From: a virus
Lineage: Duplodnaviria > Heunggongvirae > Uroviricota > Caudoviricetes
Strand: one strand, 5' to 3'
DNA: 64,000 nt
Virus record (IMG/VR): IMGVR_UViG_3300042914_002848
The notes under the pieces are model-generated. The model was not told where the DNA came from, made no database searches, and was given only the letters and a program-made list of their open reading frames with translations. The position numbers and the translations under genes were made by a program. Shown here piece by piece: positions 1,823-58,111 of the stretch; position 1 is the stretch's first letter, and each line of letters opens with the position of its first letter.

Positions 1823-2425
1823 TTAATTCGTAAAGTTTACGGTTAAATTAGGATTACCAAGAAAATCAGGTTTTTTGTAATACTCCCATACTTCATCTAA
1901 TTGTTTTGGGTCTTTCACCCACATAATCCAATCAGCTTTTTTAATTTCTTCCTCCAACACATCAATGTAAAATGTTTTTGGTATAAATGGAAATCCTTTG
2001 ATTTCCAAAGAACTATGAAATCGGTTTGTATTGTTGATAGCATCTTCTCGAGTCATATAAATAGGTCCCGACCAAGTTGTTCCATTAGGACATCTTTTAA
2101 TAATAGCGTCATTATATGTAACCCTCCCATCGCTATCCTTAAACAATCCACTTTCTCTTTTATTTTGATACCAGGGTTCACCTGCTATATCTCTAATATC
2201 TCCCCACTCTTCATCTTTTCCTGTAATAGGCCCCAGTGGTTCGTAATTAGCTAATTTGTGAAATAAGGATGCTACAATCGGTGCTGAACCACCTGAGTGT
2301 CCTTGTTTTGCGAAGACTTCCATTAATTCCATAACCGCCTCCCCAATGGCTCCTGCGTAGTCAGAATCTTCATCAAAGAAGCCTGCTAATTCTAATTCAA
2401 ATTTTGCGTGTGATGTTGTGCTCAT
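1823..2425 (-). CDS. hypothetical protein
   Basis: 200-aa ORF; no motif recognised. Confidence 0.55.
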   Translation of the reverse strand: MSTTSHAKFELELAGFFDEDSDYAGAIGEAVMELMEVFAKQGHSGGSAPIVASLFHKLANYEPLGPITGKDEEWGDIRDIAGEPWYQNKRESGLFKDSDGRVTYNDAIIKRCPNGTTWSGPIYMTREDAINNTNRFHSSLEIKGFPFIPKTFYIDVLEEEIKKADWIMWVKDPKQLDEVWEYYKKPDFLGNPNLTVNFTN

Positions 2426-2585: not shown

Positions 2586-2960
2586 TTAATCAATTTTTGA
2601 TTTAAACCCATCAATCAATAGAGATGCTGTTGCATAATTTGTAGCAAGTGGTACATTGTAAACATTACACACTCTCAATAACATATTGACATCTACTATG
2701 TGTGGGTGAACTGCTAATGGGTCTACAAAGAAAACAACCCCATCTATCTTTCCATCTGCTATCATTGCTGCTATTTGTGCATCACCACCCAATGGACCTG
2801 ATTTTTTCTTTTCAACTTTAATTCCGGCATGCTCTATATGAGTACCCGTTGTACCTGTTGCAATGATTCTTTGGTTTTTGAAGAAATCTAATCTCTTCAT
2901 TATAAAAGCCACCATATCGGCTTTTTTACCATCGTGTGCTATAACTGCGATATTAAACAT
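2586..2960 (-). CDS. mgsA: methylglyoxal synthase
   Basis: 124 aa, collinear with MgsA. Matching blocks: IAVIAHDGKK, ATGTTG, SGPLGGDAQIAAMIADGKIDGVVFFVDPL, HPHIVDVNMLLRVCNVYNVPLATNYATA. Confidence 0.85.
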   Translation of the reverse strand: MFNIAVIAHDGKKADMVAFIMKRLDFFKNQRIIATGTTGTHIEHAGIKVEKKKSGPLGGDAQIAAMIADGKIDGVVFFVDPLAVHPHIVDVNMLLRVCNVYNVPLATNYATASLLIDGFKSKID

Positions 2961-2962
2961 AT

Positions 2963-2994
2963 GTAAATATACAAAATTTATTCCATATTTACAA
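2963..2994 (-). promoter_or_regulatory. conserved phage promoter element (Bacteroidetes-type; variant with TTG upstream box) abutting the mgsA start codon
   Basis: Reads TTGTAAATATGGAATAAATTTTGTATATTTACAT|ATG on the minus strand. Member of an 11-copy family. Confidence 0.5.
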
Positions 2995-3259
2995 TACTTT
3001 CAATAATTTTTTTTACATTTTTTGAGTGAATTTTTACTTTGATAACGCCCTCACCATCAACTTTAATTCCATCCATCAATACATTTTTAAGTTTGGACAA
3101 TTCATCATCAGTTATTTTATTTTCAACGGGTATTAATTCTACATTCAATTCCAAAGCCTGCTCCTTTTGTGAAAAATAATATTTGGAGTTACTAAACCAT
3201 ATAAATTTATTAGGGGTCAATAATCCTTTCAAAAAGGAAATAAACTTGACCGGACTCAT
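2978..3259 (-). CDS. hypothetical protein
   Basis: 93-aa ORF. Confidence 0.45.
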   Translation of the reverse strand: MSPVKFISFLKGLLTPNKFIWFSNSKYYFSQKEQALELNVELIPVENKITDDELSKLKNVLMDGIKVDGEGVIKVKIHSKNVKKIIESIVNME

Positions 3260-5102: not shown

Positions 5103-5387
5103 TTATAATTTTTTAAATTTAGGACTACAACCCAAATAGATTGAGTTTTTGAATGGTGTTACTCTATGGGTTTTAATTTTATGTTTCTTAATAACTTCAT
5201 CTACGATTTCAGAAAATTCATATTCACAAATTTCATGTGCCATAAAATCAATTACCTTTTGCCCATTTTCATCTATGGAGGCGTTATTCATTAATTCATC
5301 AAAATCGGCTGATGGGGTGGATGCTTTATATAGTTTCCTATAGCATTCCCTCATTGCTTCTATTTCTTTTGTTGTTGCGTTCATCAC
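5103..5387 (-). CDS. hypothetical protein
   Basis: 94-aa ORF. Its first 10 codons lie inside the 57-bp direct repeat. Confidence 0.5.
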   Translation of the reverse strand: MMNATTKEIEAMRECYRKLYKASTPSADFDELMNNASIDENGQKVIDFMAHEICEYEFSEIVDEVIKKHKIKTHRVTPFKNSIYLGCSPKFKKL

Positions 5388-5414
5388 AATTTTTCTACTT
5401 TAAGTTCACCATCA
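5358..5414. repeat. 57-bp direct repeat, copy 1 (spans the GS 3' end and the 5103..5387 gene's 5' end)
   Basis: Differs from 6435..6491 at 2 of 57 positions. Confidence 0.85.
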
Positions 5415-6409
5415 ATTTGTTTTAAGGCATCCGAAATAACTTTAACAATCTTATACGGGTCTGCATTTGAAGCAGGCCTTCTATCCTCAATATATCCCTT
5501 CCACTTCAATGATGTTTGAATGGGAACTCTTAAAGATGCACCTCTATCAGAAACACCCCAACTAAACTTATGTATGGATTGGGTTTCATGCTTACCTGTT
5601 AATCGTTGTTCATTAGATGAACCATAATTTTCAATATGTAAAGTGTGTCTACTTTCAAAAACATTGAATATTTTAGAAAAGTATTCCATTCCCCCAATTT
5701 CTCTCATTATGTGGTTTGAAAAATTACAATGTAATCCACTACCATTCCAATCACCCATAACAGGTTTTGGGTGAAACTCAATTTTATATCCCCACTTTTC
5801 GGATAACCTTTGTAAGATATATCGTGATATCCACAAGTCATCTGCAGCAGATTTTGATGAGGTATTGAATATCTGATATTCCCACTGTCCCAAAAGTACT
5901 TCTGCGTTGGTGCCTGTTATTGATAATCCAGTATTTAAGCAAATTTCAAGATGTTCATCTACGAATTTTCTACCACTTACATGCCCATCACCCACACCAC
6001 AATAATACATACCCTGTGGTGGTGGAAATCCATTTATTGGAAACCCAATCGGTCTACCATCTTTTAAAATAGTATATTCCTGCTCAAATCCATACCATAC
6101 ATTATCATAATCAGGTAATATGTGTCTAATATTACTTTCGTGTGGTGTCCCATCAGGATTCATAACCTCACACAAAACAAAATAACTTACATATGACCCC
6201 CCATCCATAGAATTTTGGTATAAAGCAACAGGTTTAAGTATTCTGTCAGAATAATGCCCTTCGGCCTGTTTTGTGGATGAACCATCGAATGACCACTCTG
6301 GGCAATCAGATAGGGTTATAGAATCTTTTTTGGATAATATTTTAACTTTACTTCTTAGGTTTGGTTCGGGTGTATATCCATCCAACCAAATGTATTCTAA
6401 TTTTATCAT
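5384..6409 (-). CDS. glnII: glutamine synthetase, type II (eukaryote-like GSII) homolog
   Basis: 341 aa, collinear with GSII. Matching blocks: EYIWLDG, GMYYCGVG, NAEVLLGQWEYQIF, HCNFS, RLTGKHETQSIHKFSWGVSDRGASLRVP, GYIEDRRPASNADPY. Confidence 0.8.
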   Translation of the reverse strand: MIKLEYIWLDGYTPEPNLRSKVKILSKKDSITLSDCPEWSFDGSSTKQAEGHYSDRILKPVALYQNSMDGGSYVSYFVLCEVMNPDGTPHESNIRHILPDYDNVWYGFEQEYTILKDGRPIGFPINGFPPPQGMYYCGVGDGHVSGRKFVDEHLEICLNTGLSITGTNAEVLLGQWEYQIFNTSSKSAADDLWISRYILQRLSEKWGYKIEFHPKPVMGDWNGSGLHCNFSNHIMREIGGMEYFSKIFNVFESRHTLHIENYGSSNEQRLTGKHETQSIHKFSWGVSDRGASLRVPIQTSLKWKGYIEDRRPASNADPYKIVKVISDALKQIDGELKVEKL

Positions 6410-9488: not shown

Positions 9489-10349
9489 TTATTTACCCAA
9501 ATTATACATCATATTAGTTCCTGAACCCAGTTGTGTGGTAGGTAGAACTCCATTCCACTTATTAATGTATTCAAGTTGTAATAGTAATGGTGTTAAGGTT
9601 TGTTGTTTCATTCTATTGGCTTCAGCTTCGGCTTTGGCTGATGTCAACATCGCTTGAGCATTACCTTCAGCCTGAGCAATTTTGATTTTGGCTTCAGCTT
9701 CAGCTTGCTTTACCCTATTCTCAGCAGTAAGTGCGGACTGCACAGCGTTGTTCTTAGCCTCAATCGCTTTCTTAAATGTTTCAGGATAAACGAGATTTGA
9801 TGTGAATTGAGCCAAAATAAAACCTTCAGGTAATAGATGTGATTCCAAAACCTTTCGAACCTTTACCTCAAATTGTTCACGATTAGAAATAAGTTCATCA
9901 GCGGTGTATGAGTTGGCAACCAAACGAAACGCATCGTAAACAGCTGTTTTAAGAAACCCAGATTCAATTTCATCCAAGGTGACTCGGTATTTACTGAAGA
10001 TATAAGGTGCCTTTTCTCGTTTTACTGAATAGTTCAATAATGGTGATACGTGAAACTCAGAACCATCTTTTGAGTTGACTACAAATGATTCATCTGGGTT
10101 ATCTTCACCATTGTTCTTATACTCTTTGTGTTGAACAAAGGTTGGGAACTCAATAATTTTTGTGGTGAATGGGTTGTAGAATACAAGTCCAGTTACTTCG
10201 GTAACATCATCTACACCTTTACCATCTCCATAAAGATTTACTTTGACACCAACATGTCCAGCATCGATTCGTTCCCAGATTGAGAAACTGAGAAGTAGAA
10301 GAACAAAAGCGACGATTGCTCCGATTCCAAATTTGAAAGGGTTTTCCAT
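9489..10349 (-). CDS. SPFH/band-7 (prohibitin/stomatin/HflK-like) membrane protein
   Basis: N-terminal TM helix, then an Ala/Glu/Lys-rich coiled coil (KQAEAEAKIKIAQAEGNAQAMLTSAKAEAEANRMK) typical of SPFH proteins. Confidence 0.65.
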   Translation of the reverse strand: MENPFKFGIGAIVAFVLLLLSFSIWERIDAGHVGVKVNLYGDGKGVDDVTEVTGLVFYNPFTTKIIEFPTFVQHKEYKNNGEDNPDESFVVNSKDGSEFHVSPLLNYSVKREKAPYIFSKYRVTLDEIESGFLKTAVYDAFRLVANSYTADELISNREQFEVKVRKVLESHLLPEGFILAQFTSNLVYPETFKKAIEAKNNAVQSALTAENRVKQAEAEAKIKIAQAEGNAQAMLTSAKAEAEANRMKQQTLTPLLLQLEYINKWNGVLPTTQLGSGTNMMYNLGK

Positions 10350-10362
10350 AGTTTTTTGTTTT

Positions 10363-10569
10363 TTAGTTTTTTTTTGTTGTGGTTTTTGGTTTAAAAATGA
10401 ATTTTAAAATTAATTCAGAAATGTATATTCCTCCAAGTAAAATGGATACACCAACGAAAAAAGCAATTGTTGATGACATATTCATCAGAAAGAAACTGAA
10501 TTTCATTAGTTCTGAAAATGCTAATCCAAGTAGGATACAATAGAATGTTTTAATTAAAATGTTTTTCAT
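10363..10569 (-). CDS. small membrane protein
   Basis: 68 aa with two TM helices. Confidence 0.45.
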   Translation of the reverse strand: MKNILIKTFYCILLGLAFSELMKFSFFLMNMSSTIAFFVGVSILLGGIYISELILKFIFKPKTTTKKN

Positions 10570-10572
10570 ACT

Positions 10573-11232
10573 TTATTTTTTATTTTCTAATTCATCTAAA
10601 TAATCCTGAAGATCTGATGAGGTCATATATGTTTTACTAAAATCAGGTTCAATTTTCTTAATTTTTTTAATTGTGTCTTCTTTTTTACCAAGTCTGTAAT
10701 AATGAGCCTCAATAGCATCTGCTAAGTCTTGAATGTATTGAGGTGCAGCAACTGAGATTCTTAAATCATACCATTGCCATTTTGTTTTATAATCTACAAA
10801 TGTAATTCCTTTAGTTAGTTTTCTATGTAAGTTATGTAGTGTCATATTACGAACCCTTACAATAGAGTTATCGTTACCAAATACCTGAAGAAATCTAAGA
10901 AACCAACGAGGACACCACCAAGGTTTTGCTTCATAATCCATAGCCAAAACCAATGGGACCATAGCTTTATCATAGTTATTGTAATCAGGTACAGAACCTA
11001 AATAACCATACTTTTCAGAAAATCTTCTCGGAAAGAAAATATAACGAATATCATCCCACTCTATATTACGAGTATGTACTATACCTTTCTTTCTACCCTT
11101 CCAAAATAGGAGAGATTGTCCAAAGTCTTTTACTTTATCAATAAGTGGACGATTGTCCTTAAAAGGACCAAATTTACTTTTTTTCATATCAAAGGGGTCT
11201 GAATCGTATAAATCGTAGTTAATTTGTGTCAT
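10573..11232 (-). CDS. hypothetical protein
   Basis: 219-aa ORF. Confidence 0.5.
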   Translation of the reverse strand: MTQINYDLYDSDPFDMKKSKFGPFKDNRPLIDKVKDFGQSLLFWKGRKKGIVHTRNIEWDDIRYIFFPRRFSEKYGYLGSVPDYNNYDKAMVPLVLAMDYEAKPWWCPRWFLRFLQVFGNDNSIVRVRNMTLHNLHRKLTKGITFVDYKTKWQWYDLRISVAAPQYIQDLADAIEAHYYRLGKKEDTIKKIKKIEPDFSKTYMTSSDLQDYLDELENKK

Positions 11233-11233
11233 A

Positions 11234-11356
11234 CTACAATATTGGTTTAATTAGAGTAAAGACTAAGTACCCCAATAAACAACCCATTAAGGCGGCGGAT
11301 GCAACGAAAAATAGTTCGGTTATCAAATAAAAAATTGTGGATAGTTTGGTTTTCAT
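11234..11356 (-). CDS. small hydrophobic protein (below the ORF-track size cutoff)
   Basis: 40 aa (MKTKLSTIFYLITELFFVASAALMGCLLGYLVFTLIKPIL). It fills the gap between neighbours exactly, with ATG at 11354-11356 and TAG at 11234-11236. Confidence 0.4.
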   Translation of the reverse strand: MKTKLSTIFYLITELFFVASAALMGCLLGYLVFTLIKPIL

Positions 11357-11367
11357 ATGGTTTCCTT

Positions 11368-11781
11368 TTATTGTTTGTTTAAATAAGCAAGAACTTTTTT
11401 GTAGTATTTCTTTTCAGCATTCCTAGCATCTTTCTCCAATGGATTATTCCAATACCCATAAAAAATAGAATATACTGCATACTTTGTTTTCACAGGTTGT
11501 AGTGAGTGTTGGTATTCGTGTATAATGGTAGTTACTAATTTTTGTAAAGTACGAATCTTATTATGATAAAGAATAATTTGGTTCTCATCAGGGTCAAAAG
11601 CACCATAAGTTAGTGGTTCATACTCATCACGAACAACGGATAATGATATAGGTATTTTGTACCTACGATTGATACCCATATTCTTTTTACACCACCGAAA
11701 TACACGCTCTGATAGCAGTTTTTTTTCAGTTCGTGTCCAATTGGATAGGGACATACGCTGAGGATATTTTAGTTTTCTCAT
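11368..11781 (-). CDS. HExxH zinc-metallopeptidase-like protein (SprT/WLM-like)
   Basis: IIHEYQHS carries the HExxH motif. The ORF-track start at 11817 is a GTG; ATG at 11781 (MRKLKYPQ) lies 25 nt downstream of a promoter element. Confidence 0.5.
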   Translation of the reverse strand: MRKLKYPQRMSLSNWTRTEKKLLSERVFRWCKKNMGINRRYKIPISLSVVRDEYEPLTYGAFDPDENQIILYHNKIRTLQKLVTTIIHEYQHSLQPVKTKYAVYSIFYGYWNNPLEKDARNAEKKYYKKVLAYLNKQ

Positions 11782-11802
11782 ATCTTTTTCAATAAGTATA
11801 AT

Positions 11803-11837
11803 GTAAATATACCACACAAATGGTATATTTCCAAATT
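11803..11837 (-). promoter_or_regulatory. conserved phage promoter element
   Basis: Reads AATTTGGAAATATACCATTTGTGTGGTATATTTAC on the minus strand. Confidence 0.55.
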
Positions 11838-11876
11838 TTGTATATTAAATTTGCGTTAAGTTTTTTGAGTAAAAAA

Positions 11877-12104
11877 TTAACTATTAAAGTACTCCCTCAA
11901 ATGAGTAACTTTTTCAAGTCCAGACTCAAAATTACCCTCAACCCACCAAAAAAACTGAGCCCTCTCCCCCGTCATACCATCATTGGGTAATTGATTGAAA
12001 AGGTTTTTGGCCTGTTTATGCTGCCCATTATGGATACTCTCCAAAATATACTCATAATACTCTTCTTTGGTTGAAAAACCAAAATCATTTAATAGTTCTG
12101 TCAT
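11877..12104 (-). CDS. hypothetical protein
   Basis: The ORF-track start at 12131 is a TTG; ATG at 12104 (MTELLNDFG) is more likely the real start. Confidence 0.5.
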   Translation of the reverse strand: MTELLNDFGFSTKEEYYEYILESIHNGQHKQAKNLFNQLPNDGMTGERAQFFWWVEGNFESGLEKVTHLREYFNS

Positions 12105-12111
12105 TTTAAAA

Positions 12112-12270
12112 TTATTTAATAATATAATCAATTAATTGGGTAATTAGATAAAAAACCGATATCAACTGATAAGCCATCATCGTCAAAAAGCCAAGCGTAA
12201 TAATGGCCACCGATTGAACAAATATCCGAAGGGGTTTCATACTCATTGAGGTTGTTTCCATATCAATCAT
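12112..12270 (-). CDS. possible small membrane protein
   Basis: 52-aa ORF (MIDMETTSMSMKPLRIFVQSVAIITLGFLTMMAYQLISVFYLITQLIDYIIK) that starts 8 nt after a promoter element. Confidence 0.3.
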   Translation of the reverse strand: MIDMETTSMSMKPLRIFVQSVAIITLGFLTMMAYQLISVFYLITQLIDYIIK

Positions 12271-12278
12271 CTTACATA

Positions 12279-12311
12279 GTAAAGATACGAAGAAAACCCC
12301 ATATTTCCAAG
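12279..12311 (-). promoter_or_regulatory. conserved phage promoter element (part of a duplicated terminator-promoter module)
   Basis: Reads CTTGGAAATATGGGGTTTTCTTCGTATCTTTAC on the minus strand. Near-identical copy at 21619..21652. Confidence 0.55.
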
Positions 12312-12350
12312 CTTTCTATATTAAATTTAGGTTAAATTTATCCACATTTT

Positions 12351-12379
12351 TTGTGGAAAAGTGTCCAATTTATTGGACA
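12351..12379 (-). terminator. rho-independent terminator (in duplicated module)
   Basis: Inverted repeat TGTCCAAT-TT-ATTGGACA followed on the minus strand by CTTTTTCCACAAAAAA. It begins 5 nt after the NUDIX gene's stop. Confidence 0.55.
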
Positions 12380-12383
12380 GTTC

Positions 12384-12788
12384 CTACTTAACCCTCTTTT
12401 TCCTAAAGAAACCCCCATAAGAACCCACCACAGAGGTTATAATATCCTTTGTAAGAGGTGTAAAGGTGTACTGCTTTAGGTTGGGTATCTCTACGAATTT
12501 AACTTCGGTATGCGCTCCCAGAGAGGCTTTTCCTGATACAAAATCACACATAAAGGGTATTAACTCCACATCATCCCCTATGGCTGGTTTGAACTGGTGA
12601 AATGGTTGTATTTCTATCCCAAGCTCCTCTCTAAACTCTCTGATTAGTGCCTCATACTCCGTTTCCCCATCATCCACTTTACCACCAGGAAACTCCCAAT
12701 ACCCACCCCAATTGGGGTTGTTATCCAATCGTTTTCCTATTAAAACCTTATCCTCGTTTCTAAGTAATCCGCAAACTACTTTAATCAT
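12384..12788 (-). CDS. NUDIX hydrolase
   Basis: Nudix box GGKVDDGETEYEALIREFREELGIEI matches GX5EX7REUXEEXGU. Confidence 0.8.
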   Translation of the reverse strand: MIKVVCGLLRNEDKVLIGKRLDNNPNWGGYWEFPGGKVDDGETEYEALIREFREELGIEIQPFHQFKPAIGDDVELIPFMCDFVSGKASLGAHTEVKFVEIPNLKQYTFTPLTKDIITSVVGSYGGFFRKKRVK

Positions 12789-12924
12789 CCTCTATTCTTC
12801 AAATATACCAAATTGCTTATATATGAATGGAGCACCCATTTTTTTCATTGTCATTGCCACCTTCATTGTTACACCAATTATTCCACCCATATTGGTGTTC
12901 CAAAATAAAGATTGTATAAAATAG

Positions 12925-13518
12925 TTATTCACACTTAACTTTAAATTGACTTACAACCGTTGTTGTTGGTGGTACATTGTTAAAATAGTAGCAATCACAC
13001 ACACCCAATTTCGTTGAATGAATTCTTTTATAAAACCCGGATGGGATAGTAGCGCCACCTGGTACTTTTTTAAGTGGTGGTTTAAAATCTACTCTAATGT
13101 AGACCTGAATATCATCTGCTTTCTGCCTCATCACCCTCTCAGATTCTTCTAACTCCTTCCACGGACCTCTATTCAAAGATTGGTGTTGAAGAGCAGAGTT
13201 TAAATAAGTGAATGTTTGTTTAAGTAGGTTTATATCACAACCAAATGCAGCAGCGGGAGCCATATGTCCCTTATCCCACTCATTTGCTACATAATCCGCA
13301 TTATCGGATGTATGATATGATTTTTCTTTGTAGAAATCCAAACCTTTACGAGATACTGAATTTTCAGCACATTGAACTCTATACTTAATCCATTTTGGTT
13401 GCTCCAAAATTTCGGAATAAACCATTTCAAATATTTGGGTTTTAATATATACACTATCTCTCCCCTGTCCAAAGGAATATAGTGGTAAAAGTAGTAAAAG
13501 TAGTATTAGTTTTTTCAT
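12925..13518 (-). CDS. secreted DNA/RNA non-specific endonuclease (Serratia nuclease family)
   Basis: Signal peptide MKKLILLLLLLPLYSFGQ, then the catalytic DRGH-type motif WDKGHMAPAA. Start moved from 13593 to the Met that begins the signal peptide. Confidence 0.7.
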   Translation of the reverse strand: MKKLILLLLLLPLYSFGQGRDSVYIKTQIFEMVYSEILEQPKWIKYRVQCAENSVSRKGLDFYKEKSYHTSDNADYVANEWDKGHMAPAAAFGCDINLLKQTFTYLNSALQHQSLNRGPWKELEESERVMRQKADDIQVYIRVDFKPPLKKVPGGATIPSGFYKRIHSTKLGVCDCYYFNNVPPTTTVVSQFKVKCE

Positions 13519-13522
13519 AGTA

Positions 13523-14161
13523 TTAATCCTCATAGTGTTTTTTATTATTATCATCATCCCCATCATATAACCAATCGGGTAAATCATCATCAATTGTGTT
13601 TATTTCATAAGTATCATTATCATCCCAATCATCATCCCAATTGTAATCACCGTCATATCTCATATTAGATTGGGATTCTAACTCTTCAATACACTCTTCC
13701 AGCAAAGTATCTTTAATGGTAAATATTTTTGATTCAATTGTATCAACAGACTCATAATCCTCTTTACTCATCAAAGAACTCAATTGCTTTTCAGTAGAAA
13801 CCGAACCAATAGATGTTGCATAGTACGCGCCCGCACAAACGTATTCCATATGCTCATATGTTCCTCTTACTTCAAAATCCTCATCAATTTCTTTGAATAT
13901 CTCACACATTCTATCTACTAAGTTGTGAGGAAATTCGCTGTTAGATGATAGAACTAGCATTGATTCATCGCCAATGAATACATTACTTAATTCAGCCGAA
14001 CAACTTCCCACACAATTAGTGTCTACATCGGAAATTTGTTCGTAGAATTGGCTTAGTAACCAATCCGAATCATGTGTTTTAGGATTTACAAAAAGAGATG
14101 ATAGCATAGATTGCAGGTCATCATTGCCTTTGATTCTAATAGTTGATAGTACTCTGTCCAT
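13523..14161 (-). CDS. hypothetical acidic protein
   Basis: 212 aa, rich in Asp/Glu and Trp/Tyr toward the C-terminus. Confidence 0.5.
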   Translation of the reverse strand: MDRVLSTIRIKGNDDLQSMLSSLFVNPKTHDSDWLLSQFYEQISDVDTNCVGSCSAELSNVFIGDESMLVLSSNSEFPHNLVDRMCEIFKEIDEDFEVRGTYEHMEYVCAGAYYATSIGSVSTEKQLSSLMSKEDYESVDTIESKIFTIKDTLLEECIEELESQSNMRYDGDYNWDDDWDDNDTYEINTIDDDLPDWLYDGDDDNNKKHYED

Positions 14162-14174
14162 ATAAATAAATAGT

Positions 14175-14941: not shown

Positions 14942-14963
14942 TTGAATGTATTTACATTTCAAA

Positions 14964-17205
<2,242 letters not shown>

Positions 17206-17221
17206 ATTATGAAAAAAAATA

Positions 17222-17515
17222 TTAGTTATCGGATAATTTTACCATCAAAATTTCACTTTCACGGTATAGATTATATTTTACTCCATCAATTTTAATTTGG
17301 GTGCCTGTTCCATCTAAAAGAACTTCATCATCCACTCTTAATTTCATAGGTATCTTAACACCTTGCTGAGTAAATAATCCATCACCAACTGCAACAATTT
17401 TTCCATTCATTGTTTCTTTTGCAGTTTCGGGTTTGTATAACCCACCTTTTGTTTTTTCATCGTGCTTGCTTACCAAAACAAGCACATAATCATTCATTGG
17501 TTTATAGTTCATCAT
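17222..17515 (-). CDS. groES: co-chaperonin GroES (Cpn10)
   Basis: 97 aa following the GroES pattern: KPMNDYVLV, KTKGGLY, IVAVGDG, KIDGVKY, ILMV. Confidence 0.8.
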   Translation of the reverse strand: MMNYKPMNDYVLVLVSKHDEKTKGGLYKPETAKETMNGKIVAVGDGLFTQQGVKIPMKLRVDDEVLLDGTGTQIKIDGVKYNLYRESEILMVKLSDN

Positions 17516-17535
17516 AACTCCTTTTGTTTTTTTGA

Positions 17536-21724: not shown

Positions 21725-21916
21725 TTATTTGTATGGAAACAACTTATTTAGGGTTTCCTGCCGTTCATCACACCCACAATCAGATTGTCCTGCAATGTGG
21801 GCTATTTTTTCAGCCAACTTATCCAATTTGGTTGCCGATGTTACCTTTGCAATGGTATCACCCAAACCTTTACTTTTTTGCCCTTTTTCTACGCCCATTT
21901 TGTATCTCCGTTTCAA
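21725..21916 (-). CDS. hypothetical protein
   Basis: 63-aa ORF that overlaps the ClpS-like gene. Confidence 0.35.
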   Translation of the reverse strand: MKRRYKMGVEKGQKSKGLGDTIAKVTSATKLDKLAEKIAHIAGQSDCGCDERQETLNKLFPYK

Positions 21917-22115
21917 ACTTTAAATAGTTTAATTTATTTTGGTAATCAAATAATTCAGTATAACCACCCTCTTTTACACAGCAATTACCTGTTGTGTGGA
22001 TTATGTGAGCAATACTTGCGCACTGATTTAGGGGATAATCAAACATATTTGATAATATTAAAATGACATCATTAAAAGAATGGATATCATCATTATGAAT
22101 AAATAATTTTGCCAT
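21870..22115 (-). CDS. clpS: ClpS-like Clp protease adaptor
   Basis: MAKLFIHNDDIHSFNDVILILSNMF...AHIIHTTGNC aligns with the ClpS core ([22 protein letters not shown]...AVHYQGKA). Start set at MAKLF. Confidence 0.55.
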   Translation of the reverse strand: MAKLFIHNDDIHSFNDVILILSNMFDYPLNQCASIAHIIHTTGNCCVKEGGYTELFDYQNKLNYLKFETEIQNGRRKRAKK

Positions 22116-26692: not shown

Positions 26693-28408
26693 TTAATAAG
26701 TTAAAGTTGATTGATTTGTAAATCCTGGTGATAATAAATATAGGTTTGTTGTACCTCCACTCAAAGGAGTAAAAGTATAGGTAGATTGAACTCCTGGTAT
26801 TGAACTTCTTAAATCGGTTGTGCTGGTGGTTAAGGTTGTCCATTGTGAGTTTGTGAATAGTAAAGTTCTTTTAGTATAAGCCAACCCATTCACCCTTTTG
26901 ATTATTGTATTTATATCCCCAATCGTAATATTATTATCACCATTTAATTCATATTTGTGGTAGTGGTAAGACCTGAGTGGTGTTCTTTGTAATATAATAT
27001 CATCAACTCCTACAAAATCAATAGAAGATAGATTTGAGGTTGTAGTTGGGATTACTACTTCAATATACCATTCATCTCCGTTTGTTATTGGCTGTGAAAA
27101 TGAATATTCCCCTAAAGTGTTTGTTGTAGATGTGGTTTGTTGAGTCCAAGAAGTGAATGTTGGTGCTAATACACCCAACTCCGATGTTTGTAATGAATAG
27201 GTACTTTGATTGGGTCTTTTCCAAACAACAGCCAATCCATCACCCCCACCATATTCTTGCATCCTTGCTCTAAAAGTGTATTGAGTCCCCGCTACTAAGT
27301 TTATATTCCCATATATCGGCCCACTCATTCCGTGTCCACCATAATAACTTACTACAAAAGTTCCACCAATGAATAAATCACTACCATCATCTGAATTTAT
27401 ACCAAATGAGTATGTCCCACTTACAGCAGGTATAAATGTCCCCGTAACTTCAACCGAATAGTAATCTCCATTATTGGGAACAGTTGCACCTGCATTTCTT
27501 ATAGTTGTAAATGTATTAAAGTTTAAGCAAGTTGTTGTAGGTAATGTCCCCGACCATCTGAGTTGAGTATTCGTAAAGGTTGTATTGAACAATCTATCAA
27601 ATTCAGTTGTGTTCGTTGGATGCGCCACATATTGTGATGTGTTTCCATTTCCAGCATGCGTTGAAAAAACCTTTACATCCATCACATTAGATAATCCAAT
27701 TGTTTGACCCCTCTTAAAAAGTTTTGTAAGTATGTTTGAAACAGGTACATCGTTTTCAGTTCTGATAATGCCTGAGTGTGTAAAAGGTATGAAGGGTGTA
27801 AACAATACAGATGAATTAGAAGTCGGACTCCAATTAACACCATTTCTACCTGTTGTTGTGATTATTTGTGAGTTATTGTTGTTTGATATCCCTTGAAGAG
27901 ATGCACCAGAAGAACACCCCGGATGTGTACTGACATTTATTTGTATTGTATTTGTTGTTTCTGATAATACGATTTGAAAATCCGTAAAAAGTGTGGTGCT
28001 GGAATTACAGCTATAATAACCTATATGATAACTTACAACAAATTTTCGGTTTGGAGATGAACCAATGGTTTGGTATCTTACAAAGTAACCAGAGATTGGA
28101 AATAAATCCATAGCATTGGCATGAATACCATTACTTACTACACTATTAGGCGAACCACCAACAATATCACCACCTGCATTTGTAAAAGATATCCATCCAT
28201 TAGAACATATATTGACTGTTGTAAAATTTGTTCCCCAATAACTGAATGTAAAACCTATTGGTAAATTAGATATAGTTTGGTCATCCCCCAAAGTTAAAGC
28301 AGTCCCAGCAGTTGATTCGTATGAGTAGGTTGGTGTTGATTGGGTATAACTCATTTGCCCAAATACCGAAAATGGTAGTAATAGTAATAATATCAACTTT
28401 TTCATCAT
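26693..28408 (-). CDS. secreted PA14-domain protein (carbohydrate-binding, adhesin-like)
   Basis: Signal peptide MMKKLILLLLLPFSVFGQ. PA14-like block GTYSFGINSDDGSDLFIGGTFVVSYYGGHG...LVAGTQYTFRARMQEYGGGDGLAVVW. Confidence 0.6.
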   Translation of the reverse strand: MMKKLILLLLLPFSVFGQMSYTQSTPTYSYESTAGTALTLGDDQTISNLPIGFTFSYWGTNFTTVNICSNGWISFTNAGGDIVGGSPNSVVSNGIHANAMDLFPISGYFVRYQTIGSSPNRKFVVSYHIGYYSCNSSTTLFTDFQIVLSETTNTIQINVSTHPGCSSGASLQGISNNNNSQIITTTGRNGVNWSPTSNSSVLFTPFIPFTHSGIIRTENDVPVSNILTKLFKRGQTIGLSNVMDVKVFSTHAGNGNTSQYVAHPTNTTEFDRLFNTTFTNTQLRWSGTLPTTTCLNFNTFTTIRNAGATVPNNGDYYSVEVTGTFIPAVSGTYSFGINSDDGSDLFIGGTFVVSYYGGHGMSGPIYGNINLVAGTQYTFRARMQEYGGGDGLAVVWKRPNQSTYSLQTSELGVLAPTFTSWTQQTTSTTNTLGEYSFSQPITNGDEWYIEVVIPTTTSNLSSIDFVGVDDIILQRTPLRSYHYHKYELNGDNNITIGDINTIIKRVNGLAYTKRTLLFTNSQWTTLTTSTTDLRSSIPGVQSTYTFTPLSGGTTNLYLLSPGFTNQSTLTY

Positions 28409-30721: not shown

Positions 30722-32623
30722 TTAGAATTTAAATATTTTGTAAACTTTTTGCTTTTCGTTAGTGGTTAATCTTACAAAGTAAAAACCTGTCTTTAAATCA
30801 CTAACATTGATTTTTTTCGTAACTACTTGATTTTGATTTACGAACTCTTTTTCTGAATAAAAGTTTTTACCCATATAATCGTAGATTTCGTATGTTAAAT
30901 ATCCCCAATCAGTTTGGAAATAATCTATGTTTAAGTTGTCTTGAACAGGGTTAGGATATACTCTGAATCCATTCACCAATTGGTCTACCAACTCTCTTGC
31001 TCTTCTACCATTAACCACAGTCGCATCTACAGGTGAAGGGATGATATTCAAATCTTCTGCTTTTTCATTTCCCGCTGCTTTGTTGGTTATTTTAATAGGT
31101 GATTGTTCCCAGTTTTGATTTAAGATTTCAAATTGGAAATTGAACATTTGAGTTGGGTTGGTGATAAGTGATGGAGACATTTTAGATTCGTGTCCACCCC
31201 AAGTTATCTCACCAGGCTTTGCTGAAATGAATGCGTTCCAAGCACTTGCTTCAGGCCCTACATTAACATTTGTAAACCTAAAAATGGTTGGGTCATACTT
31301 TAAAGATAATTGTGCCGCACCTACTTTGTTTCCGTGTGTGATAAAGGTAACAGCAACATTTACTGAATTATCATCTGAAATAGTTAATTTAGGTATTCTA
31401 AATTGAACCGAATCTTCAATGTTTTGATAGATTGTTCCTTCATCCAATACATAAGATGTTCCGCTTGTTGGGTTGTTTACTCTTTGAATTTGGAATGATA
31501 AGTTGTTTAATCCAGTATTTGTTACATCCCCTAAAACATACCCTCTATAACTTAACGAACTTAATCCATTCAATGGAACATCAATGTTAGTTGTACCTAT
31601 GATATTGGTTTGGAATACATCTGGGTTAGCCATAATCGTAGCGTATTCTCCTGCGGTATAATACCTAATATTGTATTCATTTGCTACTACAGGAGACCAA
31701 GTAGTTCTACCTGTTGCTAAACGATTAAATATTAAATAAGCATCGGATACGGATAATGTGTTATTGCGGTTTACATCACCTTGTTGGAACTCGTATGCTT
31801 GGGCAGTATCAGCGTAAATACTCATATCGGATAATCTATAAGCATCGGTAATGTTGATAGCTGAATTATCAGATAGGGTATCTAAATTTGATACTAACTT
31901 AACATTGTAGAAAGATGTATCGTATGGGATTTTAATTCCTGCTAAACCAGCAGCGTCTGTTACAAATCTTTCACCACGACTATAAGTTTGTGTGGTTTTC
32001 AGTTTGTAATCAAATGCGAATGGCATATCCGGCGCAGGTGTTCCATCTACATTTAATAAGGTTACGGGGAACACCAAAGTATCCATTTGGAATCTACCTC
32101 CGTAGCTGTAAACACCTAAAGCGTTATCAACACCAGCGGTTGTGGTTGCTATGTTTGTGTAGGCAGGGGTAGATTGAACTTCTAATGAATCAACGGAAGA
32201 AGGATTGAACCCAACGGCGTGTGGGAGTAAAACTTCAAATATAGCACCATCTGGCCAATCAAATACTGCTGATGTCCCAGTATAGATTGCCGTTGCGTTT
32301 ACCCAACCAGGCTGACTATAATAAGAACCATACTTTGTACCGATTCCTGCTGCGGTTGGTCCCCATTTTACAATAGGTTGCTTGAAAGCTGCGGTAGGGT
32401 AAAAAAATCTTACCTGAAAACCAGCATAACTTACTGCAGTTGGATTGTGATAGTGTAAATATACTACAGTAGTGTCCTCTAATACACTACCCAATGTAAA
32501 CACCGTATCAATCAAAAAGTGTGGTGAGTTTGAGTTTGGTGATACTAATACTTCCGTTCTTCCGTTTTGAGCAAATGCTCCAAATGGTAAAAGTAACGCA
32601 AATAATAAAATAAGTTTTTTCAT
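30722..32623 (-). CDS. secreted protein with type IX secretion system C-terminal sorting domain (T9SS cargo)
   Basis: Signal peptide MKKLILLFALLLPFGAFAQ. C-terminal CTD: YPNPVQDNL...EIYDYMGK...INVSDLKTGFYFVRL...KVYKIFKF, matching the Por_Secre_tail pattern. Confidence 0.7.
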   Translation of the reverse strand: MKKLILLFALLLPFGAFAQNGRTEVLVSPNSNSPHFLIDTVFTLGSVLEDTTVVYLHYHNPTAVSYAGFQVRFFYPTAAFKQPIVKWGPTAAGIGTKYGSYYSQPGWVNATAIYTGTSAVFDWPDGAIFEVLLPHAVGFNPSSVDSLEVQSTPAYTNIATTTAGVDNALGVYSYGGRFQMDTLVFPVTLLNVDGTPAPDMPFAFDYKLKTTQTYSRGERFVTDAAGLAGIKIPYDTSFYNVKLVSNLDTLSDNSAINITDAYRLSDMSIYADTAQAYEFQQGDVNRNNTLSVSDAYLIFNRLATGRTTWSPVVANEYNIRYYTAGEYATIMANPDVFQTNIIGTTNIDVPLNGLSSLSYRGYVLGDVTNTGLNNLSFQIQRVNNPTSGTSYVLDEGTIYQNIEDSVQFRIPKLTISDDNSVNVAVTFITHGNKVGAAQLSLKYDPTIFRFTNVNVGPEASAWNAFISAKPGEITWGGHESKMSPSLITNPTQMFNFQFEILNQNWEQSPIKITNKAAGNEKAEDLNIIPSPVDATVVNGRRARELVDQLVNGFRVYPNPVQDNLNIDYFQTDWGYLTYEIYDYMGKNFYSEKEFVNQNQVVTKKINVSDLKTGFYFVRLTTNEKQKVYKIFKF

Positions 32624-49667: not shown

Positions 49668-50151
49668 TTATTTCTTGTTCGTTTGTTTTTTGCTGTGCTT
49701 CTCTTACATTCTTTGGTTCTACCATATCAACAGGTTTATATTTGTAATTGTAAACTATTGCTGATTTGATGTTTTTCCATATAAAAGTTCTATATCCTTC
49801 TTGCAACAATTTGTTTCTAATTTTTGCGGTATATATCCCCTTTGATGCTTCATTGAACTCTAACTTTGCTAATTCTAATTTTTTAACTCTTGCTGATTCA
49901 GATATTACTTCACGAAATTCTTTTGATAATCTTTCAAATATTTGAGGTCTTAAATAATTCAAGTCTAAGCAATGAAAGTAGTTTTTGTATCTTGGTTCTA
50001 AAACAAGTACCCAATAATAATTCAATTCACCATTTACCTTTTCATACTGAAGCTTTGCTACCATTCCCCTTTCCAAATACATTTTGTTTAGAGGTTGAGC
50101 ATCACTCAATCTGAGTAAATGTTGATTTATGAATTTCTTATCCGTTGGCAT
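49633..50151 (-). CDS. hypothetical protein
   Basis: 172-aa ORF. Confidence 0.45.
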   Translation of the reverse strand: MPTDKKFINQHLLRLSDAQPLNKMYLERGMVAKLQYEKVNGELNYYWVLVLEPRYKNYFHCLDLNYLRPQIFERLSKEFREVISESARVKKLELAKLEFNEASKGIYTAKIRNKLLQEGYRTFIWKNIKSAIVYNYKYKPVDMVEPKNVREAQQKTNEQEINETKLRINSQK

Positions 50152-51508
50152 CTACTTTTTTCAATTCAGGTAGTTTTATTTTTGGTAGTTCGTTTGTTTC
50201 ACCAACCTTATTAAGTTTTGGTAATTCAATCTTTTTAAGTGTTGGTAGTTTTAAACCAACCATTTGAGGAGCGGAGTCTGCCCCATACTTTTCCAAGTAT
50301 TCAGATAACTTTTCGGTCATTTTATCAAAGGTAAAGTTATCTTTTGCATACTTACGATTCTTTCTGGATAGTTCTAAATACTTATTGTAATTTTCGTAGA
50401 TATCCTTCATATACCCAGCTGCTTCGCTTATATTGATTTTAAACCACTTAGAACCTTTAATCAACCAATCATTCACAGCTGATTGATGTATTTCTTCTAA
50501 TTCCCCACTAACTAACACATTAAACCCATTATCCAAAAAGTCCATATGACCACTCCACTTAGGAGCAATGATTGGTTTACCACTTATCATTGCTTCTAAT
50601 AGTGGTCTACCGAATCCTTCACCCTTTGTAAAAGATAGATGCGCTTTAACCTTTGTATGGTTGTATAGGGAGTTCATTTCAATATCTGATAAATCACCAC
50701 TCAATAAATAAATATTAGGTAGTTTTGATTCCCCACTTTCTTTTCGGACCTGCTCTTTCAACGATTCAATTCTTTTCCTTATCTCATGAGTATCCACATA
50801 AGAAGGCGCCATCAAACTTGTTTTTAGAACAAGAGCAGGTGCGGTTTTTTTACCTTTGAATGATTGTAAAAAGGTATATATCATCGCACATACATTCTTA
50901 CGGTCTTGCCCACATTCGCCAGGCAACCAATGTCCTACGAATAGGAAGCAAAACTCTTCTGAAACATCACTCAATACATCTTTTACAGATTGTTCAACAG
51001 GCAGTTTATTATCGTATATCTGCTCATCAAACCCTTCAAAGAGAACTTCAACAGGCTTCGTTAATCCTAACTCACCAACCTTTTGTTGAGTTTTTTCATC
51101 CTGCATATCATACTTTATCTCCAACCCAGATTTGGCGTGGTTGGATGATACCAAAGTTAGATTCATTCTATTACACCCCTCAATAAATTGAGGTGAAGCC
51201 TGATTTGTTTCAATCCCCGCAGTTATACCAATGTTATAGTTACCCATAGGTTGGAACTCATTTGGTATTGTAATTTGTATCCAAACATCAGGCTTTTGAT
51301 TAATCTGCCCCAAAACCAATCTACTCACCAAATCATCATCAATTGGTGATATCAAAGCGTTTTGAGGTGTAGCACCCCATCTCTGAGGTAAAATCTTAAC
51401 ATCCCAATCCGGCCTTGCTTTTATCAAACTACGGACAAAGTCACGACTACGCGCACCGTATCCACTACGGGTTGCTATTGGGCAACTAACTATACATAAC
51501 TTCTTCAT
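50138..51508 (-). CDS. glycosyltransferase family 4 (GT-B, GT1 fold)
   Basis: EGFGRPLLEAMISGKPIIAP. Confidence 0.65.
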   Translation of the reverse strand: MKKLCIVSCPIATRSGYGARSRDFVRSLIKARPDWDVKILPQRWGATPQNALISPIDDDLVSRLVLGQINQKPDVWIQITIPNEFQPMGNYNIGITAGIETNQASPQFIEGCNRMNLTLVSSNHAKSGLEIKYDMQDEKTQQKVGELGLTKPVEVLFEGFDEQIYDNKLPVEQSVKDVLSDVSEEFCFLFVGHWLPGECGQDRKNVCAMIYTFLQSFKGKKTAPALVLKTSLMAPSYVDTHEIRKRIESLKEQVRKESGESKLPNIYLLSGDLSDIEMNSLYNHTKVKAHLSFTKGEGFGRPLLEAMISGKPIIAPKWSGHMDFLDNGFNVLVSGELEEIHQSAVNDWLIKGSKWFKINISEAAGYMKDIYENYNKYLELSRKNRKYAKDNFTFDKMTEKLSEYLEKYGADSAPQMVGLKLPTLKKIELPKLNKVGETNELPKIKLPELKKVDANG

Positions 51509-52926
51509 ACTTTTACTATTTCAAACTTTTTACGAGGTTTCCAATTTTCAAATACCACCTCCATTGATTCAATAAAGGTTTCACCCATTTTTTCAGCTGT
51601 CATATTACCAACACCATTTACAAATGCGTGCGCTAACATCCCCGCTTTTGCTCTTTCATCTGCTGGGGTATCATACCATTCCTTAATTGCGTTTCCAAAA
51701 TCTCTGAAATCACATCTATCATCAAATATATAAGGTGTCAATGGTGAACCTTGCAATGAACGATTTGATGGCCATACAGGCTTTACCCACTCACCCCAAG
51801 TCAATCTACTCAAATAATCAGAACGAACATCGTGCAACGAACCCAATTCCAAATAATCATCTTCGGTTAAGAACTTACCATCCATTTTAAACCCACATTG
51901 GTCTTGCAATCCACCAGTAACATTTACCACAATTGGTAAACCAGCTCTCATCCCTTCACAAGTACTCAACCCAAAACCTTCATTGGATGTAAGGTTTACA
52001 ATTATATCACCTGAGTTGTAGTACAGGTTTAATTCTTCAGTTGATATGCCAGGATTTGTAAATACATATTTACCACCACTGGAGCAATTCTTAATAACTT
52101 CAGGTATATCCGTTCCATTTTCATCTACAGGCTGTGTGTGTAAAAACAAACAAACCTTATCACGCTTCTCCTTTGGTAATTGCTGAACAAAACTATCAAA
52201 AGCAATAATCAAATCACCTGGTTGTTTTCTACGAATATTTCTATTGTTCCACAACACCACAAATTCCATATCATCAATTCCATACTTTTTCTTAAACTCC
52301 ACCAATTTTTCATTATCTTTTGGTAGTGGTTTAAAATGTTCGGATACACCATGCGGTACATACTTAAATGTCCAATCAGGTAAATCCATACCATACTTTT
52401 TCAAACACCTTTTGTTGATACCATAAGTTTGTTTTGATATCGCCATCAGCAAATCACAACTTGCGTAATAAGGTGAATTCCAAACTGGGTCAGGTAAATC
52501 ATCCCAAATATTATAATAAAATATTGGAATCATCTGCCTAAGTTCATGCTCCATTTGATACAACCATATCCAATATCTTGGGTCGGTAAAGTGTAGAATA
52601 GCATCAGGCTTTTCCACATTTATCAATTGACGAACAATATCAGGATTTCCATATCCATTAGTGCAGTATATTTTTAGATATGCATCCTCAACACCAGTTT
52701 CTTTTGCAGCATCCTGCGATACATCTAAAACCTTTCCGTTTTCTGGGTGATTTAATGCAGCACCTAATTGAACCCAATCGTATTTGTGTAGGGTTTTTAG
52801 GACAAACTCTTTTGATTGAGTTGCTATTCCACTAAATAATCTTAAATCATCTGAAAGAAGGAGTATCTTCTTTTTCTTTGGTTTGTTAGGGTCTATTTTC
52901 CTAAGCTTTGGTAATTTTAATTCCAT
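51505..52926 (-). CDS. glycosyltransferase family 4 (GT-B)
   Basis: NEGFGLSTCEGMRAGLPIVV. Confidence 0.65.
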   Translation of the reverse strand: MELKLPKLRKIDPNKPKKKKILLLSDDLRLFSGIATQSKEFVLKTLHKYDWVQLGAALNHPENGKVLDVSQDAAKETGVEDAYLKIYCTNGYGNPDIVRQLINVEKPDAILHFTDPRYWIWLYQMEHELRQMIPIFYYNIWDDLPDPVWNSPYYASCDLLMAISKQTYGINKRCLKKYGMDLPDWTFKYVPHGVSEHFKPLPKDNEKLVEFKKKYGIDDMEFVVLWNNRNIRRKQPGDLIIAFDSFVQQLPKEKRDKVCLFLHTQPVDENGTDIPEVIKNCSSGGKYVFTNPGISTEELNLYYNSGDIIVNLTSNEGFGLSTCEGMRAGLPIVVNVTGGLQDQCGFKMDGKFLTEDDYLELGSLHDVRSDYLSRLTWGEWVKPVWPSNRSLQGSPLTPYIFDDRCDFRDFGNAIKEWYDTPADERAKAGMLAHAFVNGVGNMTAEKMGETFIESMEVVFENWKPRKKFEIVKV

Positions 52927-57496: not shown

Positions 57497-57530
57497 ATAC
57501 AATATACGAAATTTTTATCAATTATCCAAA
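57497..57530 (-). promoter_or_regulatory. conserved phage promoter element
   Basis: Reads GTTTGGATAATTGATAAAAATTTCGTATATTGTA on the minus strand. Confidence 0.5.
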
Positions 57531-58111
57531 CATTTATAGAAAATAATTTTACGATTTTCACCAGTTGGTTTTACAAACTTTTTAGATAACTCTTCCGAAT
57601 TATCCCATTTCATAGATGATGATTTATGTTCAGGTAAGCCTGCTGTAAAACCAATAGATTGCCAATTATCTGCTTTATAAACTGCTCCAGTATTACCACC
57701 TGCTACAAATGTAATGATATGTTTAAGTTCATCTCCATATTTTTGTTTCCAAGCAATCGGGCCTTTTTTTCTCAATTCTTTTAAAATACGAGTTCCTGCA
57801 TTCTTTATTGATTTTACCATACAAAATCTCCAATTATTACATATTGTATTGAAAACTTCTCTATACTCCAACTTACTTAATTGTAACTTATTTAACAAGT
57901 CTTTTGGTGGTGGATATACTGAAGAACCTATACCAATCATACCAACAGGCTGCGATGGAAATGAATCTTCTTCGTATATTAACCAATCAATTCTCCTACC
58001 AACAGAAGCATTATGTGGAACATACGAATGATAGTTTTCAATTATTTTTTTAACAATATCTTTTTGAGATTGTGTTTTAACTTCAACTAAAACCATCGTT
58101 TTAAAATCCAA
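57518..58111 (-). CDS. hypothetical protein
   Basis: 197-aa ORF. Confidence 0.45.
   Translation of the reverse strand: MDFKTMVLVEVKTQSQKDIVKKIIENYHSYVPHNASVGRRIDWLIYEEDSFPSQPVGMIGIGSSVYPPPKDLLNKLQLSKLEYREVFNTICNNWRFCMVKSIKNAGTRILKELRKKGPIAWKQKYGDELKHIITFVAGGNTGAVYKADNWQSIGFTAGLPEHKSSSMKWDNSEELSKKFVKPTGENRKIIFYKCLDN

Follow-up and report, generated by a model that had tools for sequence, protein, structure and literature searches.

We analyzed a stretch of 64,000 nucleotides from a tailed-virus genome (Caudoviricetes; IMG/VR record IMGVR_UViG_3300042914_002848), referred to below as the window, with a focus on a short gene that almost certainly encodes a full-length methylglyoxal synthase (MGS, EC 4.2.3.3) of the short form. 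The overall picture, which we consider likely, is that a T4-like phage of Bacteroidota carries a catalytically competent MGS which is expressed from its own early promoter and belongs to a phage-specific branch of the family. The gene in question is as follows:

2586..2960, minus strand: mgsA-like coding sequence, an open reading frame (ORF) from ATG to TAA for 124 amino acids (aa), with the stop codon included in the coordinates

The 124-aa protein matches the MGS-like domain of Pfam (PF02142, E=1.4e-15) and, over residues 3-119, passes the cut-offs of two NCBIfam equivalog models for MGS, namely NF003559 (161.1 bits against a cut-off of 84) and, narrowly, TIGR00160 (147.8 bits against 146.9). 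A comparison with all PDB sequences returned eleven significant matches, every one of them to a methylglyoxal synthase and collinear with the phage protein over residues 3-121, with E-values between about 1e-33 and 2e-25 (1.2e-33 for the Thermus enzyme 1wo8 and 1.6e-26 for the Escherichia coli enzyme 1b93). The identity to solved, characterized MGS enzymes is 42-52%, and these scores place the family match far above chance level. The claim of a first-pass annotation, made from the sequence alone, that 2586-2960 encodes a protein collinear with MgsA is thus borne out by the equivalog models and by PDB alignments in which a single 1-residue gap occurs. In the PHROGs collection, no family for this protein was detected (best E=0.023), so it is unrepresented among the catalogued phage protein families.

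Because PF02142 is a generic 'MGS-like domain' model, a match to it would also be compatible with a fragment or relative of the allosteric domain of CPSase or of the N-terminal domain of PurH, as opposed to MGS proper. We modeled the phage protein as a monomer with AlphaFold2 (pLDDT 86, pTM 0.82) and compared the model with the PDB using Foldseek. The top 26 matches are all to MGS, with TM-scores of 0.79-0.84 (about 0.82) and 43-52% identity; the MGS-like domains of CPSase rank after these, with TM-scores of 0.54-0.68, only 16-21% identity and E-values of 1e-4 or worse, and no PurH structure appears among the Foldseek PDB matches listed. Furthermore, the only NCBIfam matches are the two MGS equivalogs, and neither NCBIfam nor Pfam yields any match other than MGS for this single-domain ORF. 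The CPSase or PurH identity, a better match to which the first-pass annotation had named as one outcome that would overturn its identification, is therefore refuted and retains a practically negligible probability; true MGS enzymes match the phage protein far better.

For the analysis of individual residues, we used as the reference E. coli MgsA, whose sequence is identical to the PDB chain 1b93_A. BLASTP aligns the phage protein with it at 42% identity and with one 1-residue gap, which gives the following correspondence:

E. coli H19, D20, K23: phage H9, D10, K13
E. coli T45-G49 (TGTTG): phage T35-G39
E. coli S65, G66, P67: phage S54, G55, P56
E. coli D71, D91, P92: phage D60, D80, P81
E. coli H98, D101, R107, V111: phage H87, D90, R96, V100

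In characterized MGS, D71 is the catalytic base, H19 and H98 act on O3 and O2, and K23, S65, T45-G49 and G66-P67 form the cage that holds the phosphate and the substrate (PMC7843640). Every catalytic and phosphate-binding residue described in that study is present in the phage protein, so that the check on the catalytic Asp, both His and the phosphate-binding residues proposed along with the first-pass identification turned out positive. Moreover, the catalytic D60, H9 and H87 are invariant in 201 sequences of the clade, as are nearly all of the other residues; the exceptions among the 201 sequences are a single change at D20, four changes at S65 and two at G66 (E. coli numbering). The conservation of the active site makes it likely that the phage enzyme is catalytically competent.

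The conserved PH(E/D)PD motif of the family reads PHIVD in the phage protein and PH(I/Q/E)VD across the viral clade; the Val in this motif is universal in the clade and is found also in cellular MGS of Saprospiraceae. Four signature residues (M21, R23, N99 and Y109), all outside the active site, hardly vary within the viral clade and seldom occur in cellular MGS. Together with the altered motif and with a gene for a Tad3-family protein located two genes downstream, these features could be taken to indicate that the MGS fold was recruited for a role other than MGS activity, for example, the binding or cleavage of a phosphorylated immune signal. The neighboring gene is:

1823..2425, minus strand: Tad3-family protein of 200 aa, matching PF25185 ('Type I Thoeris inhibitor Tad3') over residues 1-117 with E=1.8e-35

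We consider such a role very unlikely. The catalytic and DHAP (dihydroxyacetone phosphate) phosphate-binding residues are conserved, the hidden Markov model scores are at the equivalog level, and the PHxVD Val occurs in cellular enzymes as noted above. The proximity to Tad3 is itself not conserved, given that genes are inserted between the two in contigs L166, L168 and L169 and that the contexts in other lineages are unrelated. Neofunctionalization is unlikely because the whole active site is conserved and nearly all of it is invariant.

The phage enzyme stops ~15 residues short of the C-terminus of the E. coli protein and thus is devoid of the C-terminal helix with the Arg150 arm. In E. coli MGS, this arm is joined by a salt bridge to Asp20 of a neighboring subunit and makes the inhibition by phosphate more cooperative; the Hill coefficient is 1.5 in the naturally short Thermus MGS compared with 3.4 in the E. 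coli enzyme (PMC4133812). The nearest cellular enzymes, those of Bacteroidota, likewise have no E. coli-like tail sequence, so the absence of the tail is not specific to the phage. The phage protein has an equivalent of the salt-bridge partner Asp20 (D10) but, like the Thermus enzyme and these nearest cellular enzymes, no tail with an equivalent of Arg150. The residues of the second allosteric pathway, P92, R107 and V111 (PMC4133812), are present in the phage protein as P81, R96 and V100.

The window belongs to the genome of a large T4-like phage of the lytic type, not to host DNA. With one exception, the 67 ORFs of at least 120 aa in the window lie on the minus strand, and its GC content is ~33%. 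Among the genes on this strand are those for a family-B DNA polymerase (PolB) that resembles gp43 of T4-like phages (best match to Microcystis phage Mel-JY01, 50%), a sliding clamp, a clamp loader and an exonuclease. The window also encodes GroES/GroEL, ThyX, a glutamine-synthetase-like (GlnA-like) protein, the Tad3-family protein and many small ORFs that belong to no family; no tRNA genes were found in the 64 kb. The MGS gene blends into this background, with a GC3 z-score of 0.05 relative to the phage genome and a codon-usage cosine of 0.83, compared with 0.84 +/- 0.05 for genes of similar size.

The gene order upstream of MGS, namely metallophosphatase, GlnA-like protein, three small ORFs, AAA_33 kinase, three small ORFs and then MGS, recurs in independent assemblies (L001-L003, L006-L008, L047, L166, L167 and L169), and L168 has the same order except that the GlnA-like gene is absent. 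Altogether, MGS is syntenic in more than 10 independent contigs, and the genes downstream of it are variable. Contigs that contain the GroEL, glycosyltransferase and PolB genes of the window are up to 126 kb long, and a few belong to the 0.2-1 Mb class. The GlnA-like gene, which also looks metabolic, belongs to the conserved block that precedes MGS:

5384..6409, minus strand: glutamine-synthetase-like protein of 341 aa, with Gln-synt_N and a partial Gln-synt_C domain

A non-viral source of the MGS gene (DNA of the host, a chimera made in assembly or a cellular gene that adjoins a prophage) deserves consideration, because matches to MGS in GenBank records labeled as phages had a bacterial context in both cases that we checked (OR848172 and MT835478). 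In the window, however, phage-type genes encoded on the same strand lie to either side of MGS, whose composition and codon usage are those of the genome and which shares the promoter motif of the phage, described below. In addition, MGS has the same neighbors in numerous contigs that were assembled independently and that reach 126 kb or more, and no species-representative cellular copy exceeds 64% identity among the matches listed. The viral flanks, the composition, the promoter motif and the recurrent synteny effectively refute the host-contamination reading, and we assign a very small probability to a non-viral source in general. The statement of the first-pass annotation that the enzyme is phage-encoded accordingly stands, its main evidence being the synteny in independent viral contigs and the presence, on the strand that encodes MGS, of a T4-like PolB, a clamp and a clamp loader.

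Immediately upstream of the MGS gene, in an intergenic spacer of 17 nt, we identified one half of a bipartite promoter-like motif, the other half of which lies within the last codons of the upstream ORF (2978..3259):

2964..2971, minus strand: -7-type box TATATTTA, corresponding to the Bacteroidota sigma-A consensus TAnnTTTG except for an A in place of the final G
2991..2994, minus strand: -33-type element TTGT, 18 nt from GTAT, a spacing found also in the other eight copies of the motif
2964, 7184, 7619, 11804, 12280, 17536, 20490, 21620 and 23066 (starts), minus strand: 31-nt matches to TTGK-N18-GTATNTTTA

The box ends 3 nt upstream of the MGS start codon (ATG at 2960..2958), and the same spacing is found at the copy at 7184. 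Thus, the observation that a promoter -7 box abuts the ATG was accurate: TATATTTA at 2971..2964 is indeed 3 nt away and forms half of a motif with nine copies. GTATATTTAC recurs upstream of several genes of the window, and the complete motif TTGK-N18-GTATNTTTA has 9 exact copies, all on the coding (minus) strand, of which the MGS copy has TTGT and the other eight have TTGG as the -33 element. When one mismatch is allowed, there are 15 matches compared with 3.1 +/- 1.9 in shuffled sequences, and none of 100 shuffles reaches 15. A similar exact pattern with a 19-nt gap, for which ~0.1 matches are expected, has zero matches in the window; a looser bipartite pattern is not significant there; a generic sigma-70 scan is uninformative (21 sites against 16.9 +/- 4.6 in shuffles); and the exact TAnnTTTG has no match in front of MGS.

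The sigma-A promoters of Bacteroidota have the -7 consensus TAnnTTTG, with the box at positions -12 to -5 (PMC9723704), and the combination of a -33 TTG with a -7 TAnnTTT(G/A) in the predicted phage promoters is this Bacteroidota architecture. Given a box at -12 to -5 and its location 3 nt before the ATG, transcription is predicted to start at the A of the ATG or right beside it, so the MGS mRNA is possibly leaderless or near-leaderless. Messages of this kind account for 5.5% of the mRNAs in Flavobacterium psychrophilum (PMC9723704). Both the MGS box and its distance of 3 nt from the ATG recur in L001-L008 and L047. That L004 and L005 keep them although another gene precedes MGS there implies that the promoter and the gene travel together. 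All nine copies of the motif are confined to the accessory-gene region at 3-23 kb of the window, and this distribution suggests an early gene class transcribed by the host polymerase. With its own host-type promoter at the start codon, MGS itself is probably transcribed early by the host RNA polymerase. This promoter family offers a handle on early gene expression in a group of uncultured phages and points to the phylum of their host.

Three or four of the motif copies are part of a longer repeated intergenic element, AACCTAAATTTAAYATAsAAAGYTTGGAAA..., in which the box is followed by ACTATGTAA, an ATG directly adjoined by a stop codon. These repeated elements may drive small RNAs or the downstream genes, or may form a start-stop element. 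They are located as follows:

about 12280-12355, 20490-20565 and 21620-21695, and also at 11804, minus strand: repeated intergenic element

The Bacteroidota-type promoters, combined with a protein that carries a sorting domain of the type IX secretion system (T9SS), make it probable that the host of the phage is a member of Bacteroidota:

30722..32623, minus strand: 633-aa protein with a cohesin-like domain and a C-terminal T9SS sorting domain (Por_Secre_tail)
26693..28408, minus strand: PA14-domain protein of 571 aa, a neighbor of the T9SS sorting domain protein

Por_Secre_tail is a secretion signal specific for Bacteroidota and, in this case, is borne by a phage.

The distribution of the enzyme among related phages is broad, with at least 175 IMG/VR contigs encoding MGS relatives. 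The best 80 of these 175 share 63-97% identity with the protein from the window, and many are on contigs of 100-300 kb; a sequence identical over all 124 aa is indexed in 346 sample blocks. Three types of locus context, which differ by lineage, were distinguished, one of them being the type found in the window. In the tRNA-array type (L010, L013, L014 and L038, at about 9900-20100 of each locus), MGS comes directly after a tRNA-Met/Ile gene, at the head of 9-27 tRNA genes arrayed within 10 kb. In the DUF2452/ThyA type, on contigs of up to ~290 kb, MGS lies between DUF2452 with small ORFs on one side and ThyA on the other, in the vicinity of genes for a Clp protease and a SusC-like protein with a Plug domain. 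Clustering of the loci by shared flank proteins under single linkage placed 62 of the 80 loci in one network and did not separate the lineages. Two further observations concern individual loci. In L083-L085 (3275..6200; contigs to ~290 kb), a 917-aa SusC/TonB-receptor-like protein (CarboxypepD_reg and Plug domains) and a Clp protease are encoded near MGS. In L004 and L005, a PolB homolog with 35-37% identity to the PolB of the window is present a few kb downstream of MGS as two ORFs, suggesting that the gene is split or interrupted.

For comparison with cellular organisms, we scanned genomes representing 185,579 prokaryotic species, one per species. Among the matches listed, the best cellular one has 64% identity, the nearest ones being at 54-64%, and the top 80 matches listed are mostly from Bacteroidota (Saprospiraceae, Sphingobacterium, Odoribacter, Flavobacteriales and Cyclobacteriaceae). 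Identity between viral sequences goes down to 54%, and that between viral and cellular sequences is at most 66% among the matches listed. We built a neighbor-joining (NJ) tree (about 120 columns, 100 bootstraps) from 49 unique viral sequences, 80 cellular ones and 3 references; the viral MGS are monophyletic in 76 of the 100 replicates, apart from the closest cellular enzymes listed. The gene was probably captured long ago from Bacteroidota-like bacteria, and its acquisition from the host lineage is plausible. Pairwise Nei-Gojobori dN/dS is 0.04-0.07 in comparisons with close relatives, and its median over 290 usable pairs is 0.14; by these estimates, strong purifying selection has maintained MGS in numerous uncultured large phages.

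A protein search of the GenBank phage collection (INPHARED, August 2025) detected no close relative of the viral MGS clade, and megablast of the first 20 kb of the window against GenBank phages produced no match, so there is no close cultured relative. The protein search did return 22 phage records with 36-50% identity to the phage MGS, all of them unannotated. Two of these records, both labeled 'UNVERIFIED', encode the enzyme in a bacterial context, dapB-mgsA-cca-birA in OR848172.1 (L173) and PBP-MinD-RodA-mgsA-DacA in MT835478.1 (L174). These are ordinary bacterial chromosomal neighborhoods, and we rejected both as instances of MGS in isolated phages. Such mislabeled records can yield false matches when auxiliary metabolic genes (AMGs) of phages are sought.

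What would a phage gain from this enzyme? If MGS is made early in infection, it would convert DHAP to methylglyoxal and inorganic phosphate in the infected cell, thereby opening the methylglyoxal bypass, draining the triose-phosphate pool and freeing phosphate from sugar phosphates. Sugar catabolism could then continue when the phosphate-requiring lower glycolysis stalls, and the freed phosphate could feed the high demand of a large phage for nucleotides and DNA; that methylglyoxal is toxic would be of little import in a cell that is destined to lyse. Phosphate inhibits MGS by an allosteric mechanism, and the enzyme has been proposed to act when phosphate is deficient (PMC4133812). Release of phosphate together with the redirection of flux, both of which the first-pass annotation had put forward as possible roles, is the benefit that we favor by analogy with what MGS does in bacteria, albeit at somewhat less than even probability.

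The alternative is that methylglyoxal is itself the weapon, used for host shut-off or for the exclusion of competing phages, with the release of phosphate being incidental. In the case of shut-off, a burst of the electrophile early in infection would halt the growth of the host and its synthesis of macromolecules. The early-type promoter directly at the MGS gene, the location of the gene in the accessory region beside the counter-defense homolog Tad3 and the lack of a detoxification gene in the 64-kb window would all fit a toxin, as would the absence of the Arg150 arm that mediates the strong cooperative inhibition by phosphate in E. coli. However, the tail-less short form is normal in the closest cellular enzymes, those of Bacteroidota, hence there is no deregulation specific to the phage; the residues of the second allosteric pathway are retained; and M21, R23, N99 and Y109 are outside the active site. 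Moreover, methylglyoxal is unselective and would also harm the DNA and the proteins of the phage. We therefore regard the use of methylglyoxal as a weapon as unlikely, and below the phosphate and flux benefit.

Several points weigh against the picture of a competent, early-expressed and phage-specific MGS that benefits the phage through phosphate and flux. The margin over the TIGR00160 cut-off is only 0.9 bit. The predicted transcription start is at the ATG or 1 nt inside it, and translation may instead depend on read-through from an upstream promoter. The NJ tree is based on only ~120 columns and leaves the sister group of the viral clade unresolved, and a cellular homolog closer than the matches listed may exist. 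Finally, in the Pfam listings, which cover nearly the whole window, there are no pho-type genes (phoH, pstS) and no gene for a glyoxalase, a DJ-1/PfpI protein or an aldo-keto reductase. With no detoxifying gene, methylglyoxal would accumulate, which fits a toxic role equally well; given that neither detoxifying nor pho-type genes are present, the gene content does not strongly discriminate between phosphate and toxin as the benefit.

MGS operates at a branch point that links carbon flow, phosphate availability and self-poisoning, and bacteria keep the enzyme under tight control because of its toxic product. The conservation of the clade in at least 175 viral contigs and the presence of the exact allele in 346 sample blocks suggest that manipulation of the triose-phosphate/phosphate node is common and has been overlooked in large phages of Bacteroidota, which are major polysaccharide degraders. 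A bolder scenario, which we offer tentatively and consider rather doubtful, is that a phage-specific, monophyletic MGS lineage has come to occur across numerous large uncultured phages, apparently those of Bacteroidota, and is expressed as a leaderless message from an early promoter of the host type. These phages would use it deliberately, either to strip the triose-phosphate pool of the host of phosphate in phosphorus-poor waters or to poison the host and rival phages with methylglyoxal. If this were true, the production of a toxic electrophile would be a recurrent strategy of viral takeover and not a metabolic accident. The enzyme is small, should be easily expressed and lends itself to clear assays that could tell phosphate economy from host shut-off as the purpose of the AMG.

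Beyond the MGS locus, the window contains several other recognizable genes:

14964..16571, minus strand: GroEL homolog (Cpn60, E=5e-66)
17222..17515, minus strand: GroES homolog (Cpn10)
about 21870..22115, minus strand: ClpS-like adaptor
50138..52926: two GT1 genes, beyond the low-GC island
57518..58111, minus strand: protein of ~192-197 aa directly downstream of PolB, with a PF14236 match in contig L172

The low-GC island is located at about 34000-48000 and has 25-29% GC, compared with ~33%. It consists of some 15 glycan-synthesis genes that encode GT2, GT11, GT17-like and GT92-like glycosyltransferases, epimerases/dehydratases, a DegT aminotransferase and methyltransferases, and may serve either the glycosylation of the host surface or that of virions or DNA. 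PF14236, according to the precomputed Pfam match in L172, is the family of DruA, a protein of the Druantia defense system.

Among known enzymes, the phage MGS is most readily compared with the short bacterial MgsA of Thermus (1wo8, 2x8w), Bacillus subtilis (6f2c) and Borrelia (8u2v), with which it shares the ~120-135 aa size class, 48-52% identity, the fold, the equivalents of the catalytic base Asp71 and of His19 and His98, the TGTTG phosphate loop and the equivalents of K23, S65, G66 and P67. It differs from these enzymes in being encoded by a phage, in having PHIVD in place of PHEPD, and in the signature residues M21, R23, N99 and Y109. E. coli MgsA (1b93, 1egh, 1ik4) is more distant, at 42-44% identity; all the active-site residues and the P92/R107/V111 residues are shared, whereas the phage protein has neither the C-terminal helix of ~15 residues with Arg150 nor the 10-residue N-terminal extension. 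The nearest cellular enzymes among the matches listed are those of Bacteroidota (Saprospiraceae, Sphingobacterium, Odoribacter and Flavobacteriales, with a solved structure from Elizabethkingia, 6phe). Some of the Saprospiraceae enzymes share a PHEVD variant of the motif, and the viral sequences form a separate clade (76% bootstrap).

A viral mgsA has been listed before as an AMG in the Lake Baikal virome, on a 120-kb freshwater scaffold classified as T4-like ('virotype Caulobacter phage Cr30'; PMC8066274). That listing, in a table and in the text, stems from automated annotation; it does not look into residues, phylogeny, distribution or expression signals. It is the sole mention of a viral mgsA in the searchable literature, where we found no paper on the function of MGS in phages. 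The first-pass annotation had called the gene an unexpected AMG; that it is a phage-borne MGS gene holds, but its unexpectedness was somewhat overstated because relatives are encoded in at least 175 IMG/VR contigs and a viral mgsA was already on record as an AMG.

With its viral flanks, its homology to a cellular enzyme and its apparent maintenance by selection, the predicted phage MGS fits the AMG category, which is a familiar one, and the enzyme family as such is ordinary. T4-like cyanophages carry AMGs for central carbon and phosphate metabolism, namely talC, cp12, zwf, gnd, phoH and pstS. The concept is the same, that is, a host-derived enzyme is kept by a large lytic phage to rewire the flow of carbon and phosphate. 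The enzyme, the branch of the pathway (the methylglyoxal bypass) and the host phylum are different, and the product in this case is a toxic electrophile. What is new here is the phage-specific MGS clade, its breadth, the strong purifying selection that acts on it and its dedicated promoter of the host type.

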